Part shown: piece by piece, positions 1,995 through 49,651 of the stretch
Layout: each line of letters starts with the position of its first letter
Position numbering within the stretch: position 1 is the first letter of the stretch
Source: Escherichia phage FL31
Strand: one strand, 5' to 3'
Sequence record: PP400782
Length of the DNA stretch: 64,000 nucleotides
Made by a program: the position numbers and the translations under genes
Notes under the pieces: generated by a model
Databases searched by the model: none
What the model was told of the DNA's origin: nothing
What the model saw: only the letters and a program-made list of their open reading frames with translations

Positions 1995-2189
1995 TTATCC
2001 TCGCTTTAAACATTTGATTACAGACAGTTCTTGGCTCATGCGGACGTCTTCAGTTCCATCAACCCACAGGACTGCATAGGCTTCTTTAATTAAATTACCG
2101 TTAATTTTAAAAGCAGGTAAAACCTTTGAAATCATTCCGGGGATACCTATACCTTTTAACTGGACAGTTTGTGATAAGAATAGTTGCAT
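1995..2189 (-). CDS. hypothetical protein (64 aa)
   Basis: ORF track, abuts neighbours. Confidence 0.4.
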   Translation of the reverse strand: MQLFLSQTVQLKGIGIPGMISKVLPAFKINGNLIKEAYAVLWVDGTEDVRMSQELSVIKCLKRG

Positions 2190-2509
2190 TAGAACCTCAT
2201 CTGAAATCCGTGTGATTTAACATTACCGCCATAGATGTCAGAGGTATTGACTTCACGAGCGTCGCTAGGGTCGATGTTAATATCATGGTTGAGCTTAGTG
2301 ATTGCTAGGGTGTCACGACCATTGACTGTACGGAATTCTACTGGACAAACCACATCAGCATAAGCCTTAATGGATTCACGGGTGGGCTGTTTGTCGGCAG
2401 GAACATCTTTACCTGCTTTAGAGAAAACAACTTCACAGAAATTTTTACGAGTATCGAAATAAGTGGTCATAAACATAATATTTTCCTCAATGGAGGCCGA
2501 AGCCTCCAT
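2189..2509 (-). CDS. hypothetical protein (106 aa)
   Basis: ORF track; start may be an internal Met. Confidence 0.45.
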   Translation of the reverse strand: MEASASIEENIMFMTTYFDTRKNFCEVVFSKAGKDVPADKQPTRESIKAYADVVCPVEFRTVNGRDTLAITKLNHDINIDPSDAREVNTSDIYGGNVKSHGFQMRF

Positions 2510-2517
2510 TTTTAAGA

Positions 2518-2883
2518 TTAGATATCGAATTCATTCAGAACTACATCAAAGATTGCTTCCAGGTGTTCAGGTTTAGCTCGGTTGCTCAGGATGTGACGAA
2601 TCCAAGTTTTAACCAGAAGCTTACGATTAACACCGTTCCAGCAAGGATGAGTACCTAAATCACGTTGACGGAAATCGTCATCTAATGCAATTTTGAAGTT
2701 GGAACCTTCCATCGTGATTGAAACCGTGATGCCATTTTCAAATCGCATATAAACGTAGTTAGGAGTCATGCACTGTTCGATTTCACAAACTGTACCATTT
2801 TCGTGTTTCCATAAGCAAATAACTTCAGAAGAACCAGCGATACCGTTAGAAACATATTTACGTTCGAAGTTGATGTAGTTCAT
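2518..2883 (-). CDS. hypothetical protein (121 aa)
   Basis: ORF track; early-type promoter immediately upstream at 2913-2953. Confidence 0.5.
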   Translation of the reverse strand: MNYINFERKYVSNGIAGSSEVICLWKHENGTVCEIEQCMTPNYVYMRFENGITVSITMEGSNFKIALDDDFRQRDLGTHPCWNGVNRKLLVKTWIRHILSNRAKPEHLEAIFDVVLNEFDI

Positions 2884-35229: not shown

Positions 35230-35862
35230 TCACAGTACGTTAGTTACAAGGGTAATGATTTCTTTGGACACATTAGGGAAGTCAATGTAAGTATATTTAC
35301 CACCGATCTTAATCTTAACATCATTTTCAAGAGAAGTAAACAGCTTTGATTCAGTTTCTGACATGTTGTATGCAAAGATTCTAAGAGCGCCATCTCGACG
35401 AATTTCGATCTGACGAATACCTAGAACTCGTTTTGCAAATCGAACTTCCAAGTTACTACGGTTTTCACCAATTTCCTTAACTTCAACTTTATCTTTAATA
35501 TTTTCAAAAACAAAGTTTGCTAGTTCATGCATTTCAGGAGTAACTCCACGTGCTTTTCTAGTGTTACGTTTCTGAAGAAGTTCTGGAGCATTTTCTTGAG
35601 CAAATAGGTCTGCAGCTTTTTGGATAATATTCATTGCTTCGCCTGTTGCTACAAGTCCATCACCAGATTTTTCGACTAAACCTTTCTTAATCAATACACC
35701 AATGTTAGAGTTAACAACCGATGCATTGTATTCTGCTTCCAGAGCTTCACGGACATTGGCAGCAGTGGTGAAGTTGTTCTTAATGATATAAACCATTATT
35801 GCAGCAGTTTTTTCATTCAGAACGTTTTCAGAAGCTTTGATGATGTAAGTAACTTTAGACAT
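35230..35862 (-). CDS. motA: middle-transcription activator MotA
   Basis: 210 aa; MSKVTYIIKASENVLNEKTAAIMVYIIKNNFTTAANVRE...NSNIGVLIKKGLVEKSGDGL matches T4 MotA. Confidence 0.88.
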   Translation of the reverse strand: MSKVTYIIKASENVLNEKTAAIMVYIIKNNFTTAANVREALEAEYNASVVNSNIGVLIKKGLVEKSGDGLVATGEAMNIIQKAADLFAQENAPELLQKRNTRKARGVTPEMHELANFVFENIKDKVEVKEIGENRSNLEVRFAKRVLGIRQIEIRRDGALRIFAYNMSETESKLFTSLENDVKIKIGGKYTYIDFPNVSKEIITLVTNVL

Positions 35863-36047: not shown

Positions 36048-37373
36048 TCAAAGTGCCTCCAAGTCTTTAGTGTACTCTGTCACAACATCAGTAGACTTCC
36101 AATACTCATTTTCTTCTTTCTTAGCTTTAGCTTCTTCTGCCAGTTTACGTGCTTCATCGGAAGTGATATGGAAGATATTAAGACCTACCAGTTTATCGAC
36201 ATGTTCTTTATACATTTCGATTTGTGCTAGCTCTTCAGTCAAAGCTTTACGGGTCTTGCCTTGAATCACAATTTCACCGTTGATAACTTTTTTGATGAAG
36301 TGTGCCTTAGCAAAAGCCAGTTTAAATGCTTTTTCAGATTCAAGGATTTTGTTATCAATACGTTTCTGAACGTAAGTCTTACGGACTTCAACAAAATCTT
36401 TGATTAAGTCCACTACGTTATCGTAGACCGCTAATTTACCCTTTTCATTAATCACTGTGATGTTTTGTGAACGACGTTCGATGAGACTAAAATCTTTCAT
36501 GATTTTTTCATGACGTAGCTCTTCATCATCAGGAAGCGAGTACTCTTTACGGAACTTCACCTTAAACCCAAAGCCGTGTTCACCGCAATCATCTTCCCAT
36601 GAGATTAGACCTTTGTCTTCCAACGGGTCAAGAACCTTACTCACATACGTTTCACGGTCGAATTTATATGGGATTTCAGTTATCTGCATTTGAGTGCGAG
36701 ATGTGAACTTATATGTTCCGTGAATCTCATAACGCCCATCAACTTCATGTACTTCGCCATGGAATTCCGGGAATTCAACTTTTGGCTTAGTGACATTTTT
36801 ACCTTGAAGAGCTTGTAATACAGCCTTTTTGACTGATTTAAAACTATGAGGCAGAATATTTGTTGCGTAACCGGTTGCAATACCAGATACACCATTCAAA
36901 AGAACTGTCGGAATAATAGGAAGATAGAATTTTGGCGGAATGTGTTCTTTATCTTCATGAGCTGGAGCATATTCAGTATCTTTATATACGTTATAGAAAT
37001 TTTTACTTACACGAGCAAAAATATAACGAGATGCTGCAGCCTTTTGGACTGTTCTAGAACCAAAGTTGCCTTGGCCATCTAACAGTGGATAGTTGTTATT
37101 CCATGTGTTAGCCATCAATGCACCTGCATCTTGTGCAGAAGATTCACCATGGTGATAACCTAAATCTGCAACACCTCCTGCAATTGACGCAAGTTTATGA
37201 AATTTTTCTTTATTACCACGAGCCAAATCTAATGCACGATGAACCACAAAACGTTGAACCGGCTTAAATCCATCAATCATGTTCGGGATTGCACGGTTTT
37301 CAACGGTGTACATCGCATATGCTAAGGCTTCGTTATCAATAATACTTTTTAGATTACGAGAATTCAATTGCAT
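36048..37373 (-). CDS. 52: DNA topoisomerase II medium subunit gp52 (GyrA-like)
   Basis: 441 aa; ALAYAMYTVENRAIPNMIDGFKPVQRFVVHRAL... matches T4 gp52. Confidence 0.92.
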   Translation of the reverse strand: MQLNSRNLKSIIDNEALAYAMYTVENRAIPNMIDGFKPVQRFVVHRALDLARGNKEKFHKLASIAGGVADLGYHHGESSAQDAGALMANTWNNNYPLLDGQGNFGSRTVQKAAASRYIFARVSKNFYNVYKDTEYAPAHEDKEHIPPKFYLPIIPTVLLNGVSGIATGYATNILPHSFKSVKKAVLQALQGKNVTKPKVEFPEFHGEVHEVDGRYEIHGTYKFTSRTQMQITEIPYKFDRETYVSKVLDPLEDKGLISWEDDCGEHGFGFKVKFRKEYSLPDDEELRHEKIMKDFSLIERRSQNITVINEKGKLAVYDNVVDLIKDFVEVRKTYVQKRIDNKILESEKAFKLAFAKAHFIKKVINGEIVIQGKTRKALTEELAQIEMYKEHVDKLVGLNIFHITSDEARKLAEEAKAKKEENEYWKSTDVVTEYTKDLEAL

Positions 37374-43006: not shown

Positions 43007-43207
43007 TCACAAGTTACGTTTAAAAATTTCTGCCACTTCGAGAAGTTCTTCTTTAGTAGCTGTATCGGTTTGTATTTTATATCGAATTTCTTTAAAGCGT
43101 TCTTTAAAGGACTCTGCTGACTCGATATCAAAAAATCTTTGGATAAGCCGGAATTCCCGGAGCACTGCTTTATCAAAAAGTTCCAAGTCCACATTATATG
43201 TTCTCAT
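43007..43207 (-). CDS. hypothetical protein (66 aa), rIIA.1-like
   Basis: ORF track; position upstream of rIIA. Confidence 0.5.
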   Translation of the reverse strand: MRTYNVDLELFDKAVLREFRLIQRFFDIESAESFKERFKEIRYKIQTDTATKEELLEVAEIFKRNL

Positions 43208-43299: not shown

Positions 43300-44400
43300 T
43301 TACGCTGTGAAGATTTTATCCCACATCGCAACAACCGCATCTCGGTTATACTTCTTCCATACTGCTTCAGCACGTTTAACTCGAGCTTCGTATGTGTCAG
43401 TGAATTCTAATACAGCTTTTGTGTAAAGCGCAACTACTTCTTTCTTAGGAGTAGAGGAATCAATTTCTACACGCACAGTATCTGGGTCATATTCGAATGT
43501 CGCGTGCGGATAATCCTTAAAAACTAACTGGATTACAGGGACACCTTTAGAGATGGCTTCAATAGAACTATTCTCTACCGTACCTGTGTCAGGACACGTA
43601 TTAATAAGTGCTTTAGCTGTTTTAAGACGTTCCATGATTTCACTGTGTGGAGCATCAATAATAACAGGATATTTAGCTGGTGGCGCCCATTTGCTTGGAC
43701 AGTATCCTGCACCATTTTCGCCTAGTGCTTTAATCGCTTCAAGAGCAACATCAGTACGACGCATTTTAGTGTCATAACGTTGTGCACTAATAATCAGATC
43801 CGTCGCCGGAAGAACTTCAGGTTTCTCATTCAAACAAATAACCGGATAATCTTCGGCTTCAAACAACGGATTTGCTCGCCAATAATCATAATCAATTTTG
43901 TCAGTCAGACCTGAAGTCATATAACAATATTTGCGTTCAAATTCACGGAAGGCTTTAGTAGGAGCATAACTCTTACCACCGTTCTTATGAATTTGAATAG
44001 TCTGGTCCCAAATTTGAACAATGCCACGAGATACCGGTTCAAATGGTGTTGCCATAAAATTCTTATGAACTTTAGAGAGACCCGCGTCTTTAATTGCCTG
44101 AACGGTTAGTTTGGTCGGTTCCATTGTAACAACGAAATCATACTCATTAATGCCGGCTAGTTCAACAATCTTACGAGCCATAGTATAACTCATACCTAGA
44201 CTGAATTTAGTCAGATGACCAACAGGATGATGATTAACCTTCCAGTCACCAAACGTGTCATTATCAAAGCCGATATAATCAATATCAGCACCGATGGACA
44301 CAAGATATTTCAACACATTTAAATGTACTGCTTCAAGACCACCTTGTACACGTTCTGGGTTAAATGGGACTGCGCGAGATGGGATAAACATAACTTTCAT
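43300..44400 (-). CDS. putative GT-B fold glycosyltransferase (366 aa)
   Basis: C-terminal half has the GT4-type E-x7-E-like segment GTVENSSIEAISKGVPVIQ; lies between rIIA.1 and gene 39. Confidence 0.5.
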   Translation of the reverse strand: MKVMFIPSRAVPFNPERVQGGLEAVHLNVLKYLVSIGADIDYIGFDNDTFGDWKVNHHPVGHLTKFSLGMSYTMARKIVELAGINEYDFVVTMEPTKLTVQAIKDAGLSKVHKNFMATPFEPVSRGIVQIWDQTIQIHKNGGKSYAPTKAFREFERKYCYMTSGLTDKIDYDYWRANPLFEAEDYPVICLNEKPEVLPATDLIISAQRYDTKMRRTDVALEAIKALGENGAGYCPSKWAPPAKYPVIIDAPHSEIMERLKTAKALINTCPDTGTVENSSIEAISKGVPVIQLVFKDYPHATFEYDPDTVRVEIDSSTPKKEVVALYTKAVLEFTDTYEARVKRAEAVWKKYNRDAVVAMWDKIFTA

Positions 44401-44426: not shown

Positions 44427-44444
44427 AAGCTCCCGAAGGAGCTT
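44427..44444 (-). terminator. UUCG hairpin overlapping gene 39 stop codon
   Basis: AAGCUCC-UUCG-GGAGCUU then U/A-rich tract. Confidence 0.45.
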
Positions 44445-46260
44445 AGGACATCCATTCTTTACGAAGTTCTGAATCATCACCCAACAACATTTCAAAGAGT
44501 TCTTTCCAATTTTCAGGAAGTTTAACTACGTCGTACACAGGGTTCTGAATCATTTCACGATACTCTGACTTTTCAAGGGAGCCTAATCCCTTGATGTATC
44601 GAATACTATGCTTAGGCAGTGTATCTTTAACTTCTTCATACTCAGCTACAGTATAAAACCATTTTTGAGTTTTGCCAATTTGTGCAATAATTACAGGTGT
44701 TTTAACAAAGCGAATACGTCCTTGTTCAAACAATTCAGGCCAATTACTAAAGAAAGCAAGCAAAGCAGGATAAATACTTCCAAGACCGTCATGATCGGCA
44801 TCGGTCATAATTGCAATATTACGATAGTTCGTATTCTCTGCCTTTTCACCAAGAATAAGACCTGTGATAGCACAGATATCGAAGAGCTCTTTGTTCTTCA
44901 TCATATCAGCATATGACATACCCCAGCTATTCATCACCTTACCACGTAGTGGGAATCCGCCGTGTAGTTCACGGTCACGAACATCAATGAGATAACCAAT
45001 TGCAGAATCACCTTCTGTTAAAAACAATGTCGTATCTGCATCTTTACCACATTGGTTAGCTTTAATATGCTTATGAACCTTAGCTTTAGTTGCCTTTTTA
45101 GCTGCTTTAGTTTCTGCAGCCTTTTCTGCCGCCAATTTACGAGCTAATGCTGCTTCAACAATAGGCATAATCAAGGCTTCGTTTTTAAGAAGTGCTTGAG
45201 CAATTTTCTTAGCATCTAATTGGATATGATTACGAATATCACCATACGTTGACGTTAAACGTTCTTTAGTCTGAGAATCAAAACGCATGTTGCTCATGTC
45301 TCTAATAAACATCAACATTGTGAGACATTCTTTAACACGAGCTTTAGTGACTTCAATACCCTTATATTTCTTTTTAATACCCGGCAAAAGATGTTCGCAG
45401 ATATCGTCCATTACACATTCAACATGATGTCCACCATTTTTAGTATGGATATTATTCACATAAGTTAAATGACGGAAGCCATCTGGTGATGTTGTGAATG
45501 CTATAGAGACTTTATCATTTTCTTGAATGATGTTATCTTCACCAAATTGTTTAGCAAATCGTTTAAAATTACCGTCAACCTTTTTACCATTAAATGTGAA
45601 CTTGATATCAGGATAAACGACTGCCAATGTTTGAAGTCGGTCTAAAGTAATATCTAAATAAATTTGAGATAAATTATGCTCTTCAAATGAAGAGAAATCA
45701 GGAGTGAAGATTACTTTAGTGCCTTTATCTTTAGATTTCTTAGAAGACCATGATTTGTTTTCCATTCCGTTTGAACAGTTAACAGTGATTTCGTTTTCGC
45801 CATCTGACGTGATGCCTGTAAACAACGTAGAGAAGATATTAGTTAAACTACTTCCGACGCCGTTCATACCACCAGTCTTGCGTTCAGAATCATCACCAAA
45901 GTTACCACCAGCCTTTGGAATAGTCCAGGCTGCTACAGGCCCAGGAATTTGTTCACCTGTTTGGTCGGTAACTAAACCTTGAGGAATACCACGTCCGTTA
46001 TCTTCCACCGAAACTTGATTATTTTTAATTTGCACATCAATTTTATTTGCAAACTTAAATGATGTACGAATAGCTTCATCAACCGAGTTGTCAATAATCT
46101 CATCGATTAATTTAACCAGACCAGGAACATATTCAACTTGTTGATATTTACCAAACAAAAAACGCTCATGTGCTTCTTTAGCAGAAGAACCAATATACAT
46201 ACCACTACGTTTCTTAATATGTTCTACATCTGACAATACCTTAATTTCATTTTTAATCAT
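44443..46260 (-). CDS. 39: DNA topoisomerase II large subunit gp39 (fused 39+60, GyrB-like ATPase plus Toprim)
   Basis: 605 aa continuous ORF; ...NSVDEAI..., DNGRGIP, GGMNGVGSSL ATPase motifs. Confidence 0.92.
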   Translation of the reverse strand: MIKNEIKVLSDVEHIKKRSGMYIGSSAKEAHERFLFGKYQQVEYVPGLVKLIDEIIDNSVDEAIRTSFKFANKIDVQIKNNQVSVEDNGRGIPQGLVTDQTGEQIPGPVAAWTIPKAGGNFGDDSERKTGGMNGVGSSLTNIFSTLFTGITSDGENEITVNCSNGMENKSWSSKKSKDKGTKVIFTPDFSSFEEHNLSQIYLDITLDRLQTLAVVYPDIKFTFNGKKVDGNFKRFAKQFGEDNIIQENDKVSIAFTTSPDGFRHLTYVNNIHTKNGGHHVECVMDDICEHLLPGIKKKYKGIEVTKARVKECLTMLMFIRDMSNMRFDSQTKERLTSTYGDIRNHIQLDAKKIAQALLKNEALIMPIVEAALARKLAAEKAAETKAAKKATKAKVHKHIKANQCGKDADTTLFLTEGDSAIGYLIDVRDRELHGGFPLRGKVMNSWGMSYADMMKNKELFDICAITGLILGEKAENTNYRNIAIMTDADHDGLGSIYPALLAFFSNWPELFEQGRIRFVKTPVIIAQIGKTQKWFYTVAEYEEVKDTLPKHSIRYIKGLGSLEKSEYREMIQNPVYDVVKLPENWKELFEMLLGDDSELRKEWMS

Positions 46261-46277
46261 GTTGTCTCCTCGTTATG

Positions 46278-46310
46278 AAGGTATTCTATCATCCGAAATC
46301 TAAAGCAAAA
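46278..46310 (-). promoter_or_regulatory. possible MotA-dependent middle promoter for gene 39
   Basis: Minus-strand TGCTTTA (MotA-box-like) 14 nt upstream of TAGAAT -10-like hexamer. Confidence 0.3.
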
Positions 46311-46325
46311 AGGGCCGAAGCCCTT
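46310..46325 (-). terminator. intrinsic terminator upstream of gene 39
   Basis: AAGGGC-UUCG-GCCCUU then UUUGCUUU. Confidence 0.55.
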
Positions 46326-46746
46326 ATTTAAATTTAATTTTCTGAAGTGCATCAATTGCAGCCAAACGTCCTTGTTCACTTTTAACTGTAATGACCACAT
46401 CGCCTGATACGATCACCGAACCATCAACAAATTCTATAGAGCCTTTTTTGAAATCGACAGCTGTATCTGGTTCCGGAACTTCTTCAAAGAATTTAAATTC
46501 TGCACCATAAATTAGAATATCACCTTGCATACTAATGATTGTACGTCCAGGTCCATCGGTTTCAGCGGCAATCATTGAAACACCGTAACCAATCATCTCT
46601 TCTACAATAAAATCTCTTGATAATAAAACTGTATGCAGAGTAGTGTTAAGACGTTTACCAGTCGTATTAAGAATTCTCAAGAAATTATCTTCCTGTCCTT
46701 TGATAATACGATATTTCTTACCAACTTCAAAACCTTTAAAAGCCAT
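46324..46746 (-). CDS. hypothetical protein (140 aa)
   Basis: ORF track; terminator hairpin 46310-46325 immediately downstream. Confidence 0.5.
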   Translation of the reverse strand: MAFKGFEVGKKYRIIKGQEDNFLRILNTTGKRLNTTLHTVLLSRDFIVEEMIGYGVSMIAAETDGPGRTIISMQGDILIYGAEFKFFEEVPEPDTAVDFKKGSIEFVDGSVIVSGDVVITVKSEQGRLAAIDALQKIKFK

Positions 46747-46748
46747 AA

Positions 46749-46928
46749 TTAACCCTTCTTAAGTAAGTCGTAAAAACCACCGTTCACATGTTTAGGAGCA
46801 GAAACCCGACGAGTAGACAGACGATGACATTCAGGGCAAACATCGTTTTCTCGTTCAGAAATCCTTTTAATTTTTTCATATTCATGTCCGCAATCTTCAG
46901 ATTGGCATTTATAGTCGTATAACGGCAT
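46749..46928 (-). CDS. small zinc-ribbon protein (59 aa)
   Basis: Hand translation MPLYDYKCQSEDCGHEYEKIKRISERENDVCPECHRLSTRRVSAPKHVNGGFYDLLKKG with CxxC...CxxC. Confidence 0.45.
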   Translation of the reverse strand: MPLYDYKCQSEDCGHEYEKIKRISERENDVCPECHRLSTRRVSAPKHVNGGFYDLLKKG

Positions 46929-46930
46929 TA

Positions 46931-47359
46931 TTATTCCTTAAAATGTGCTTTCAACATTTGATACAAAGACCATGCCTGGTCGTTATTTTCGATAGTAATC
47001 GTCATCACCGGAAATTCAGACAATTCGTCAAGTTCACTAGAATCTTGCTCTTCGGACGCTTGATACGGATTTCCAACTTCGTCAAAGAACTCTGCTTCAT
47101 TCGTGGAAAGCCAGATAAAGTTTTCATCAAGAATATCACCGCCTGTTGCGTATCCAACCATGCCGGTAGATGTCACAATTTTAGTAGGACGACCAAGATG
47201 GTCAACATCTAATACTTTAAATGGTTCCATGCCAAGACGTCGTGCATAAATCCCATTATCAGTATGGTCTTTAATAAACTCTTCTTGGGCACGTTTATCT
47301 TTAAATTGGTACCACGAGTTAACGCGGAATTTATTAGCCATTAGTAAGTTTCCTTCCAA
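46931..47359 (-). CDS. hypothetical acidic protein (142 aa)
   Basis: ORF track; size and position compatible with T4 goF but not verified. Confidence 0.5.
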
Positions 47360-48209: not shown

Positions 48210-48629
48210 TTATGCGAAAGCAGCTGGGCTATATTTTTTAATTTGGAATTCAGGAACTACCATGAACTGACCAGCGAAAACGATGTTATAAAGCTTAACA
48301 CCATCTTCTACCCAACGGTCGCTAATAAATCCGGCGATTTGCTTAGTTTTCCATGGCGTTCCATCAGTTGCCGCAGCAATAGTGAATTCATGGTCTTTTT
48401 CAACAGAAACTGATCTGCATAGTCCCCATTTGAACGCTTTTTCTTCTGGCTCAATGAACTGGCTTGAGACGTAGCCAATATTACCATTAGCATCACGAAC
48501 TTTAACTTGGTTACGACCAAAAACCGGATCACTCACAGAAAGAACTTCAACCAACTTCCCGGCAACTTTAGAGCGAGAAGCAACAGATACATATACGTAA
48601 TCACCTGTAGAGAGATTTACAATATTCAT
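48210..48629 (-). CDS. paralogue A of tandem gene family (139 aa)
   Basis: Shares SASRSKxAGxLVEV, FKWxLC and GFISDxWVEDGxKLYNIVFxGxFxVV blocks with paralogue B. Confidence 0.55.
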   Translation of the reverse strand: MNIVNLSTGDYVYVSVASRSKVAGKLVEVLSVSDPVFGRNQVKVRDANGNIGYVSSQFIEPEEKAFKWGLCRSVSVEKDHEFTIAAATDGTPWKTKQIAGFISDRWVEDGVKLYNIVFAGQFMVVPEFQIKKYSPAAFA

Positions 48630-48638
48630 AATAATTCC

Positions 48639-49094
48639 TTAAGCTTTACGAGGAGACACGTAGCGAGTGATTTCAGATTCTTTAACAACTCGGAAGTCAC
48701 CTAAGAATACGATATTGTATAACTTTTCACCATCTTCAACCCATTGGTCACTGATGAAGCCGCACATAATATCAGTTTTGTTTGGATAACCATATTCGTC
48801 GATGAAATCAAATTCTTTATCAGTCCGGAATTCAACGCCTTTGCAAAGGGCCCATTTGAACTGTACATTAGGTTCAGTAGAAGCAAAATGAGCGCTCACA
48901 TGAGTTTCCAAGAATTTAGGACTTACGTAAGCGTACTGAGTTTCAGTTTTTCCAGAACTAGGAATGATTCGAACTTTAACTTCTTTAACACGACCAGTAC
49001 CATTAGTACGAAGTCCTACCACTTCAACTAGACGACCTGCAGCTTTAGAACGAGATGCAGACGATACACGCTTAATTTCACCAATAGTAATCAT
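48639..49094 (-). CDS. paralogue B of tandem gene family (151 aa from internal start)
   Basis: Start moved to ATG (MITIGEIK) because promoter 49118-49154 overlaps the longer ORF; SD AGAGAG. Confidence 0.55.
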   Translation of the reverse strand: MITIGEIKRVSSASRSKAAGRLVEVVGLRTNGTGRVKEVKVRIIPSSGKTETQYAYVSPKFLETHVSAHFASTEPNVQFKWALCKGVEFRTDKEFDFIDEYGYPNKTDIMCGFISDQWVEDGEKLYNIVFLGDFRVVKESEITRYVSPRKA

Positions 49095-49117
49095 AATTTC
49101 TCTCTCTTTGTTTAAGT

Positions 49118-49154
49118 TGAATTCATTATACTCCATCCGTCCTTGGATGTACAA
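49118..49154 (-). promoter_or_regulatory. early-type promoter (TTGTAC ... TATAAT) for paralogue B
   Basis: Minus-strand read; near-duplicate of promoter at 49672-49712. Confidence 0.45.
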
Positions 49155-49156
49155 CA

Positions 49157-49651
49157 TTAATTAAGGATATTAACCACAGCACTACGTGGAACTACACTAA
49201 AATCACCTGCATGAACTACGTTCAGAAGTTCAACACCGTCTTCAATCCACTGATCAGTTACCCATCCATTTACTGGACCAGCGAATGGGCGTCGAATTGA
49301 AACATATTTACACAACAAATCAGTAGGCTCAATAGGCTTAATCAGAGTACCGTACATACAAGCGATATCCATATCAATACAGATATCTTTAACGGGTTCT
49401 ACTTCTTCAATCAACAGTTCAAAGTCGGTGCTTGGAATGGCGGTAGTAGAAATTGTACCATATGAATTTTTAATTTCTAAGAATAACCAAGGGCCTTCGG
49501 CTTGTTTGATGAAGTTAACAATAGTGAAACTATTACCTTGAGTGGCGCCTAAAATTTCACAAAACTTTTCATAAGCTCGCACTGAAGCACCGTACCAGTT
49601 AATTTGTTTTTCGTCTTTCAGGATGTAAGTAGCCGTAGTATTGATATTCAT
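49157..49651 (-). CDS. paralogue C of tandem gene family (164 aa)
   Basis: C-terminal GWVTDQWIEDGVELLNVVHAGDFSVVP matches the conserved C-terminal block of A and B. Confidence 0.55.
   Translation of the reverse strand: MNINTTATYILKDEKQINWYGASVRAYEKFCEILGATQGNSFTIVNFIKQAEGPWLFLEIKNSYGTISTTAIPSTDFELLIEEVEPVKDICIDMDIACMYGTLIKPIEPTDLLCKYVSIRRPFAGPVNGWVTDQWIEDGVELLNVVHAGDFSVVPRSAVVNILN

Follow-up and report, generated by a model that had tools for sequence, protein, structure and literature searches.

The type II topoisomerase of phages T2 and T6 is built from two subunits and that of T4 from three (PMC11461880), with T4 representing the derived state (PMC2988022; PMC11461880). The two-subunit T6 enzyme has been solved by cryo-EM (8ylu, 8yo1 and related entries; PMC11461880). 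The unsplit large-subunit gene has been termed 'parental' in every clade (bioRxiv 10.1101/2022.08.31.505936). In T4, the parental segment is deleted and an element-borne homR is found in its place, and the same preprint puts the MobA nick region of T2 within that segment. An unsplit gene 39, often labelled 'gp60plus39', is already documented for T2, T6, RB69 and hundreds of T4-like phages, and both the literature and the RefSeq notes of RB69 and T4 already treat the single gene as ancestral and the 39/60 split of T4 as the work of an inserted MobA homing-endonuclease cassette. Here we compare with these systems the corresponding locus in the window, that is, the whole 64,000-nt stretch of Escherichia phage FL31 (sequence record PP400782) that was analysed.

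An uninterrupted gene 39

The minus strand of the window almost certainly carries, at 44443..46260, gene 39 of a Mosigvirus (an RB69-group T-even-type coliphage), encoding in ancestral, never-interrupted form the GyrB/ParE-like large subunit of a type IIA topoisomerase. Nothing in the sequence was found to count against reading it as the unsplit ancestral gene. The gene and the domains of its product are as follows.

44443..46260, minus strand: gene 39, unsplit topoisomerase II large subunit, 605 aa (ORF, PHROG 543, T6 and RB69 matches)
45694..46122, minus strand: N-terminal GHKL (Bergerat-fold) ATPase domain, aa 47-189 (match to Pfam HATPase_c better than cut-off, E=7.9e-11)
45106..45516, minus strand: transducer domain, aa 249-385 (Pfam DNA_gyraseB, E=2.7e-14; 53.4 bits, cut-off 27)
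44449..45030, minus strand: Toprim and Toprim-C, aa 411-604 (Pfam Toprim at aa 411-519, TOPRIM_C at aa 520-604)

The first-pass annotation had described one uninterrupted 605-aa ORF that runs through both the ATPase and the Toprim regions, a description borne out by the ORF list, the Pfam matches and the full-length match to PHROG 543. The ORF begins with ATG and has no internal stop in the ORF list; at a base composition of about 38% GC, stops should make up a fraction of about 0.066 of random codons, which puts the probability that all 605 are open at about 1e-18. The product matched PHROG 543 ('DNA topoisomerase II large subunit') over its full length with E=5e-287 (profile positions 23-637 of 661), and phmmer aligned it to T6 gp39 (PDB 8ylu_C) at 1159 bits, pairing query residues 1-605 with chain residues 1-604 and leaving a single 1-aa indel.

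The assignment of the regions from ATPase to Toprim was judged by Pfam cut-offs, motif positions and the alignment to the solved T6 gp39. The GHKL motifs are an N-box EIIDNSVDE at aa 54-62, a G1 box DNGRGIP at 87-93 and a G2 box GGMNGVG at 130-136, while the QTK loop of the transducer reads QTKERL (aa 330-335). Both Toprim motifs lie in one contiguous polypeptide: LTEGDSA (aa 414-420) holds the catalytic Glu, and DADHDG (aa 487-492) is the DxDxD acidic cluster. Pfam Toprim scored 17.5 bits, under its curated cut-off of 23.1, and TOPRIM_C just reached its threshold of 29 with 29.2 bits. The low Toprim score is typical of divergent phage Toprim domains and carries less weight than the structural homologue: the homology of this domain is secured by alignment over the full length with the solved T6 gp39.

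Several GenBank records of close relatives name this gene 'parE' or 'DNA gyrase subunit B', and the NCBIfam gyrB/parE models match it with E of about 1e-54 to 1e-69, as might be expected if a bacterial gene had been acquired by the phage. However, these matches reach 184-233 bits against curated equivalog cut-offs of 723-900 (TIGR01059, TIGR01055 and TIGR01058), and the 605-aa product has neither the GyrB insert nor a C-terminal extension. It is, moreover, a full-length member of PHROG 543, about 82% identical to T2/T6-type gp39, and its gene keeps the conserved T-even synteny from rIIA to gene 39. The probability of a bacterial origin is thus negligible in our view, and the product belongs to the GyrB/ParE homologous superfamily but lies outside all three bacterial equivalogs.

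We attach an equally negligible probability to an assembly or sequencing artefact, by which a real frameshift, stop or short coding gap would have been smoothed over. The first-pass annotation had raised it as a general possibility, the only point in its favour. The same intact ORF and architecture are found at at least 95% identity in more than 140 independently sequenced phages, so that a hidden sequencing frameshift is not credible, and no break of frame interrupts the alignment of the protein with a homologue that has been expressed and solved experimentally.

The site of the T4 break and bypass

As the first-pass annotation had stated, T4 divides this function between genes 39 and 60 with a 50-nt gap: at the bypass site T4 reads GAT GGA TAG...(50 nt)...GGA TTA GGT, and its two products tile the window protein. 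In BLASTP, T4 gp39 residues 1-473 correspond to window residues 1-474 (79% identity) and T4 gp60 residues 27-159 to window residues 473-605 (86% identity); the pieces overlap by two residues (473-474), and every window residue has a T4 counterpart. This alignment places the equivalent of the T4 break at Ala474/Glu475, and three short stretches of the gene are of interest here.

44836..44841, minus strand: codons of Ala474/Glu475, equivalent of the T4 gene 39/gene 60 break, which is the 5' MobA-element boundary in T4 (BLASTP boundaries, codon listing)
44785..44838, minus strand: parental segment, aa 475-492, ENTNYRNIAIMTDADHDG (MAFFT alignment of the window, RB69, T2 and T4)
44782..44787, minus strand: Gly492 (GGT)/Leu493 (CTT), equivalent of the T4 take-off codon and 50-nt coding gap (codon listing)

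The parental segment has about 83-85% nucleotide identity to the MobA-sensitive T2 allele; in the same four-way alignment T4 shows a gap and the divergent homR. At the bypass-equivalent site the window reads GAC GGT CTT GGA AGT, which is contiguous and free of any stop or gap. These contiguous codons uphold the earlier statement that gene 60 and a bypass element are missing, as do the searches: no separate gene 60 was found in the window, and blastn at word size 7 with the T4 997-nt insertion and 90-nt bypass region gave only chance matches against the whole window (E of at least 0.18). In tblastn against all six frames of the window, the best match of the intact HY01 MobA was at chance level (E=1.6), as were those of the T4 CTE and T4 NTE (E of at least 0.6) and of the p000v HNH. 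Remnants of a bypass or an insertion were thus found by blastn and tblastn neither at the junction nor elsewhere in the 64 kb.

None of the traits of a MobA cassette was seen at the locus, be it an HNH ORF or pseudogene within the Toprim-coding region, the CTE and NTE, or a gap of about 50 nt with a take-off Gly, a stop or hungry codon next to it and a matched landing codon. The deletion of 55-75 nt of parental Topo2L together with a divergent homR was not seen either; the segment aligns with T2 and RB69. Rfam (gathering thresholds) and ARAGORN returned nothing across all 64 kb, with no known RNA element or intron signal at gene 39. Because the MobA homing-endonuclease cassette, which splits the gene in T4 and its closest relatives, is absent, no recoding is needed, and translation is plain and collinear.

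A single ORF could also have been recreated secondarily, by a 'hit and run' in which an ancestor with the MobA cassette and split genes 39 and 60 lost the endonuclease and the bypass by excision. A clade of Aeromonas phages sets a precedent for such re-fusion (bioRxiv 10.1101/2022.08.31.505936), and gene 39 is a site of homing-endonuclease activity in the wider group: T4-type phages have MobA, and some Mosigvirus genomes have a related HNH at the 3' end of the gene. On the other hand, the window protein is colinear with T2, T6 and RB69 and has zero extra residues where re-fused genes keep CTE/NTE-homologous insertions, and the CTE and NTE searches gave the chance matches described above. The junction, too, resembles that of the parental T2, unlike the element-borne homR of T4, and includes the stretch that is missing in T4, while all close relatives sampled are contiguous at this point. 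We therefore regard re-fusion as very improbable, if somewhat less so than a bacterial origin or an artefact. On the evidence of one sequence, it is also formally conceivable that gene conversion with an unsplit allele once removed a MobA insertion without trace. The first-pass annotation had called the gene 'fused' and proposed locating a fusion junction, which reverses the polarity: the gene is colinear with its T2, T6 and RB69 counterparts, keeps the parental segment and carries no CTE or NTE remnants. 'Fused' is the wrong word for it, because the unsplit gene is ancestral and the T4 arrangement derived.

Polarity and distribution

On these comparisons, the single gene 39 is evidently the ancestral form and the T4 39/60 split a derived one that arose via a MobA homing-endonuclease cassette. 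Most of the T4 superfamily has the unsplit form, which is thus nothing unusual. A 201-nt probe over both T4 break points was contiguous in 1025 of the 1146 phage records, all full-coverage matches listed being single pieces; T4-type records were matched only from probe position 125 on, downstream of the gap. A probe for the insertion found the full T4 insertion in about 41 records. Gene 39 was covered in one place to 80% or more in 2006 of 2202 records, but this figure is not a count of unsplit genes; the unsplit counts were taken from the junction and insertion probes, because the coverage search may join the two pieces of T4.

The discovery value of the locus is accordingly small, an unsplit gene 39 being the textbook ancestral state and the structure of a homologue having been solved. 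For annotation, the gene requires no recoding exception here, and it is usable as a 'parental' comparator allele in studies of the T4 MobA/bypass cassette.

Expression signals and neighbouring genes

Four features lie at or near the ends of gene 39.

46283..46307, minus strand: candidate MotA-dependent middle promoter, TGCTTTA (46307..46301), 12 nt, TAGAAT (46288..46283), read from the sequence
46266..46271, minus strand: Shine-Dalgarno GAGGAG, 5 nt upstream of the gene 39 ATG (sequence)
46310..46325, minus strand: UUCG-tetraloop hairpin and T-run directly past the stop of the upstream gene (terminator-like scan)
44427..44444, minus strand: UUCG-tetraloop hairpin over the gene 39 stop codon, with a T-rich tail behind it (terminator-like scan)

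The candidate promoter at 46283..46307 has what we take to be a resemblance to the T4 middle-promoter consensus. The terminator-like scan found 10 structures where 2.1 were expected, and the hairpin at 44427..44444 is identical in RB69 and p000v. A scan for sigma-70 promoters performed at chance (15 found, 14.6 expected) and was left unused. Two small ORFs were set aside. The antisense ORF at 44608..44916 (102 aa), which crosses the junction, is open in Mosigvirus but was rejected as a gene because four stops break its equivalent at the homologous T2 position; the ORF at 46257..46400 (47 aa), which overlaps the gene 39 start and covers the hairpin and promoter region, is unannotated in relatives.

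Two genes lie between gene 39 and rIIA.

43300..44400, minus strand: homologue of RB69 ORF003c/gp3, a GT-B (GT4-like) glycosyltransferase, 366 aa (99.2% identity to RB69 ORF003c)
43007..43207, minus strand: rIIA.1, 66 aa (Pfam T4_RIIA1, E=2.1e-30; 100% identical to RB69 rIIA.1)

The product of 43300..44400, which forms no part of the topoisomerase, had no Pfam or NCBIfam match and was similar to PDB 9iqz_H ('Glycosyltransferase subfamily 4-like...', E=2.6e-248); proteins of the ORF003c type are putative DNA arabinosyltransferases (PMC6024577; PMC13326640). A glycosyltransferase gene between gene 39 and rIIA.1, as reported in the first-pass annotation, is thus present, but the place that it takes up is not that of gene 60. 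In T2, gene 39 directly adjoins rIIA.1, whereas in the window ORF003c lies between them. Since the unsplit T2 gene has rIIA.1 as its immediate neighbour, ORF003c is an independent insertion in the Mosigvirus lineage.

The partner subunit and the proposed enzyme

The window also encodes the partner of gp39.

36048..37373, minus strand: gene 52, topoisomerase II medium subunit (GyrA/ParC-like), 441 aa (Pfam DNA_topoisoIV, E=4e-78)

The catalytic-Tyr motif of gp52 is AAASRY(117)IF, and its relative in O157 typing phage 3 is annotated 'DNA topoisomerase II'. If it resembles its solved T6 homologue, the enzyme would be a heterotetramer made of two 605-aa gp39 and two gp52 chains. The GHKL ATPase domains would dimerise upon ATP binding and so trap a DNA duplex. 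Acidic residues of the Toprim domain (the Glu of LTEGDSA and the Asp cluster of DADHDG) would bind Mg2+ and, with Tyr117 of gp52, cleave the gate duplex, and passage of the trapped duplex would relax or decatenate phage DNA during replication. We infer both this ATP-dependent relaxation and decatenation and the gp39(2)gp52(2) stoichiometry from the biochemistry and structures of the T6 and T4 enzymes (PMC11461880).

Possible homing targets in gene 39

In 28 other phages, Mosigvirus members among them, the 3' end of gene 39 is the site of a MobA-related HNH endonuclease, and the final stretch of about 135 nt of the gene is recoded; this element, present in some relatives and absent from the window, is perhaps worth a look. 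The terminus of gene 39 is uninterrupted here (...TGG ATG TCC TAA). It is conceivable, though we hold it doubtful, that the gene is a doubly 'empty' homing site, with an intact T2-like MobA target at about 44785..44838 and a second one at its uninterrupted terminus. If this allele can be cut by both endonucleases, HNH homing would have a two-site hotspot in gene 39, which would also be a natural test bed for whether homing works on arabinosylated Mosigvirus DNA, and the 3'-end element would represent an undescribed second solution to insertion into an essential gene, a recoded terminus as against translational bypass.

Comparison with known systems

T4 gp39 and gp60 are homologous to the window protein throughout the enzyme core and are encoded in the same genomic neighbourhood. 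T4 has, and the window lacks, the 997-nt insertion, comprising the mobA pseudogene, 60.1, the 43-aa gp39 CTE and a gp60 NTE of about 26-30 aa, and the 50-nt gap after Gly46 (GGA-UAG). The 'hit-and-run' Topo2L of Aeromonas phages (clade 7) is, like the window gene, a single full-length ORF without endonuclease or bypass, yet it keeps CTE/NTE-homologous insertions at the MobA site (Manning & Atkins, bioRxiv 10.1101/2022.08.31.505936), where the window gene has none. The gp39 proteins of T2 and T6 are closer: unsplit, 604-605 aa long and about 82% identical, they are colinear with the window protein from end to end, have identical catalytic motifs and likewise partner with gp52. The closest counterpart is RB69 gp39 (NP_861694.1, RB69p004), from the same genus, with the same synteny of rIIA, rIIA.1, ORF003c and 39, which is encoded by one ORF and shares 95.7% amino acid identity. 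The two differ by one residue in length (606 aa in RB69, 605 here) and by about 4% substitutions; their architecture is the same, and the RB69 gene has been annotated as a single gene since the RB69 deposit.

Gene 39 is a single intact gene

The open reading frame at 44443..46260 (-) begins with ATG and continues for 605 codons with no internal stop in the ORF listing, exactly the single uninterrupted 605-aa frame that the first-pass annotation had claimed. At the ~38% GC of the window, stops make up a fraction of ~0.066 of random codons, which by simple arithmetic gives a chance of ~1e-18 for 605 open codons; this ORF is therefore a real gene. The possibility of a cryptic frameshift or stop, raised at the time, is not supported, as the same ORF is present in >140 independent genomes, and an artefact of sequencing behind the single ORF is excluded on the same ground. 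The full-length protein is covered by PHROG 543, 'DNA topoisomerase II large subunit' (E=5e-287), and has the following Pfam domains:

aa 47-189, HATPase_c
aa 249-385, DNA_gyraseB
aa 411-519, Toprim (sub-threshold)
aa 520-604, TOPRIM_C

The N-box, G1 and G2 motifs of the ATPase were all found, as were the QTK loop, the Toprim Glu (LTEGDSA) and the DxDxD cluster (DADHDG). Public records name the orthologues inconsistently as parE, gyrB, 'topoisomerase IV subunit B', 'ATP-binding protein' or 'hypothetical protein', including those of phage T2 (AP018813, 2189-4264 of its locus) and of relatives; the T2 rIIA.1 is labelled 'transaldolase'. That the gene is a bacterial gyrB or parE is argued against by NCBIfam scores far below the equivalog cut-offs for both families, and the match to a phage family (PHROG 543) and the synteny also oppose it.

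Two local features were also seen. Before the QTK loop (45262-45276, the region of aa 329-333) the protein shares MRFDSQTKERL with the solved T6 gp39, where the T4 reference gp39 (region of aa 325-329) reads MRLIRQTKERL, a short difference within sequence that is otherwise highly conserved. An antisense ORF of 102 aa at 44608-44916 (+) spans the region equivalent to the T4 junction; it is open in Mosigvirus (RB69, O157 typing phage 3) and is most likely not a gene, the homologous T2 position having four stops.

Comparison with the split gene of T4

T4 gp39 and gp60 (NC_000866), translated after removal of the annotated 50-nt gap, were compared with the 605-aa protein by BLASTP. Residues 1-473 of gp39 align to 1-474 (79% identity) and residues 27-159 of gp60 to 473-605 (86% identity), so that the alignment proposed in the first-pass annotation locates the junction and the two T4 proteins tile the single protein exactly, overlapping by two residues only (473-474). 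The unmatched residues are those of T4, namely 43 at the C-terminus of gp39 and some 26-30 at the N-terminus of gp60, which are extensions derived from the mobile element (bioRxiv 10.1101/2022.08.31.505936). The T4 break corresponds to codons Ala474/Glu475 (44841..44836), and Gly46, the GGA take-off codon ahead of TAG and the 50-nt gap, to Gly492. At this site the sequence reads GAC GGT CTT GGA AGT (44787..), contiguous and in frame; as claimed, there is neither a gene 60 nor a bypass. In the DNA alignment of the junction, a stretch common to the window, RB69 and T2 is absent from T4, and the T4 replacement segment ('homR') is divergent.

Remnants of the bypass or of the insertion, for which a check had been suggested, were sought over the whole window, and only chance matches were obtained, both by sensitive blastn with the 997-nt T4 insertion and the bypass region (E>=0.18) and by tblastn with intact MobA (phage HY01), the C-terminal (CTE) and N-terminal (NTE) extensions of T4 gp39 and gp60, and a second HNH endonuclease described below (E>0.5). 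Rfam at the gathering threshold and a tRNA scan found no family and no tRNA gene in the entire 64 kb.

The unsplit gene and its history

In the account of Edgell et al. (PMC2988022), an insertion of mobA divided the T4 gene 'as compared to related phage', and the unsplit gene has been termed 'ancestral' or 'parental' by Manning & Atkins (bioRxiv 10.1101/2022.08.31.505936), who found the MobA and bypass cassette in 28 genomes of six clades, each with 96-99% identical relatives lacking it. The notes that RefSeq attaches to T4 gene 39/60 and RB69 gene 39 agree with this literature on the T4 split, as do our own counts on the unsplit ancestral state. The full T4 insertion occurs in ~41 of 50,697 phage records, and with a 201-nt probe that bridges both break points of T4, 1025 of 1146 records give a contiguous match (at least 80% at one site). 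The 154 matches of the probe at >=95% identity are all of the Mosigvirus type, and the full-coverage ones among the matches listed are all unbroken; in T4-type records the match starts only at probe position 125, just past the bypass site. In a 60-row spread of the protein search, full-length matches from 99.8% to ~30% identity are likewise all single-piece, and some records name the unsplit gene '60plus39'.

A gene split by MobA may also be rejoined later. In one clade of Aeromonas phages the single ORF contains CTE/NTE-homologous insertions, read by the authors as a MobA 'hit and run' (bioRxiv 10.1101/2022.08.31.505936). Unlike those re-fused genes, gene 39 here carries no insertion when set against T2, T6 and RB69 (one residue near position 301 accounts for the length difference to T6 gp39) and no CTE/NTE similarity in tblastn. 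The word 'fused' is therefore inapplicable, and on these comparisons the gene has most probably always been whole. The first-pass annotation thus had the facts right and the framing wrong, and it over-rated their importance: the unsplit gene 39 is already known.

A second homing endonuclease in relatives

Mosigvirus p000v, like 27 further records, carries a 265-aa HNH/NUMOD3 homing endonuclease at the 3' extremity of gene 39:

2044-2841 (-) of the p000v locus, HNH endonuclease, equivalent to window position 44443-44451

Copies of a duplicated TGGATG hexamer flank the insertion, which is 794 nt long and whose endonuclease ORF terminates on the W-M-S-stop that originally closed gene 39. Upstream of the insertion, the final ~135 nt of gene 39 form a divergent patch, either recoded or co-converted. 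The HNH domain is 60% identical to MobA over 70 residues. The element recurs in AV115 at 99.5% nucleotide identity although the gp39 of AV115 and the one studied here share only 80.7% identity, so that it appears to be horizontally mobile. The window has no element of this type (tblastn, chance matches only).

Expression signals and neighbouring genes

A predicted Shine-Dalgarno sequence, GAGGAG, lies 5 nt ahead of the gene 39 ATG. Further upstream, TGCTTTA and TAGAAT are separated by 12 nt (46307..46283, minus strand), a candidate that we take, from its MotA-box-like appearance, to resemble the MotA-dependent middle promoters of T4; the gene for a MotA homologue is at 35230-35862. On either side of gene 39 lies a predicted UUCG-tetraloop hairpin, perfect and with a T-rich tail:

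46310-46325 (-), AAGGGC-TTCG-GCCCTT
44427-44444 (-), AAGCTCC-TTCG-GGAGCTT, identical in RB69 and p000v

Terminator-like sites are enriched around the gene (10 found, 2.1 expected).

Many E. coli phages match the 3.9-kb region around gene 39 at 97.7-98.7% identity, and the annotated relatives are Mosigvirus (RB69 group, Straboviridae/Tevenvirinae). Identity to RB69 is 95.7% for gp39, 100% for rIIA.1 and 99.2% for ORF003c, to which the 366-aa ORF downstream of gene 39 (43300..44400) is assigned by sequence. This ORF has no match in Pfam or NCBIfam, but it matches the GT4-like glycosyltransferase of PDB 9iqz/9ir0 (E=2.6e-248), and its earlier designation as a glycosyltransferase was therefore right. 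ORF003c has been proposed as a GT-B arabinosyltransferase (Thomas et al., PMC6024577) and is listed as 'beta-arabinosyltransferase 2' in a 2026 study (PMC13326640). In T2 the unsplit gene 39 directly adjoins rIIA.1, whereas here ORF003c lies in between; gene order thus marks ORF003c as an independent lineage-specific insertion and no substitute for gene 60.

Elsewhere, where T4 has a single goF with 39.1 and 39.2, two paralogous goF-like genes are found (46324-46746 and 46931-47359, minus strand; both PHROG 622, E=1.3e-19 and 8.6e-39), with a 59-aa zinc-ribbon gene (46749-46928) between them. Three ORFs in tandem (139, 172 and 164 aa; 48210-49651, minus strand) share the C-terminal motif FISDQWVEDG.KLYNIVF.G.F.VV, two of them carrying a MotB-like annotation in relatives; they look like a local expansion of paralogues. 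GC skew is positive only at ~26-34 kb, where the tail-fibre genes of relatives sit on the plus strand.

The predicted enzyme

The gene 39 protein aligns end to end with T6 gp39 (PDB 8ylu and related entries, 1159 bits), and its partner subunit is also encoded:

36048..37373, gp52, 441 aa, Pfam DNA_topoisoIV (E=4e-78), motif AAASRY117

By homology, we infer a gp39(2)gp52(2) assembly. The two-subunit T6 and three-subunit T4 enzymes have both been solved, that of T4 being the only three-subunit type IIA topoisomerase (Xin et al., PMC11461880), and the gp39(2)gp52(2) complex would be an ATP-dependent type IIA topoisomerase that acts as the T6 enzyme does (PMC11461880).
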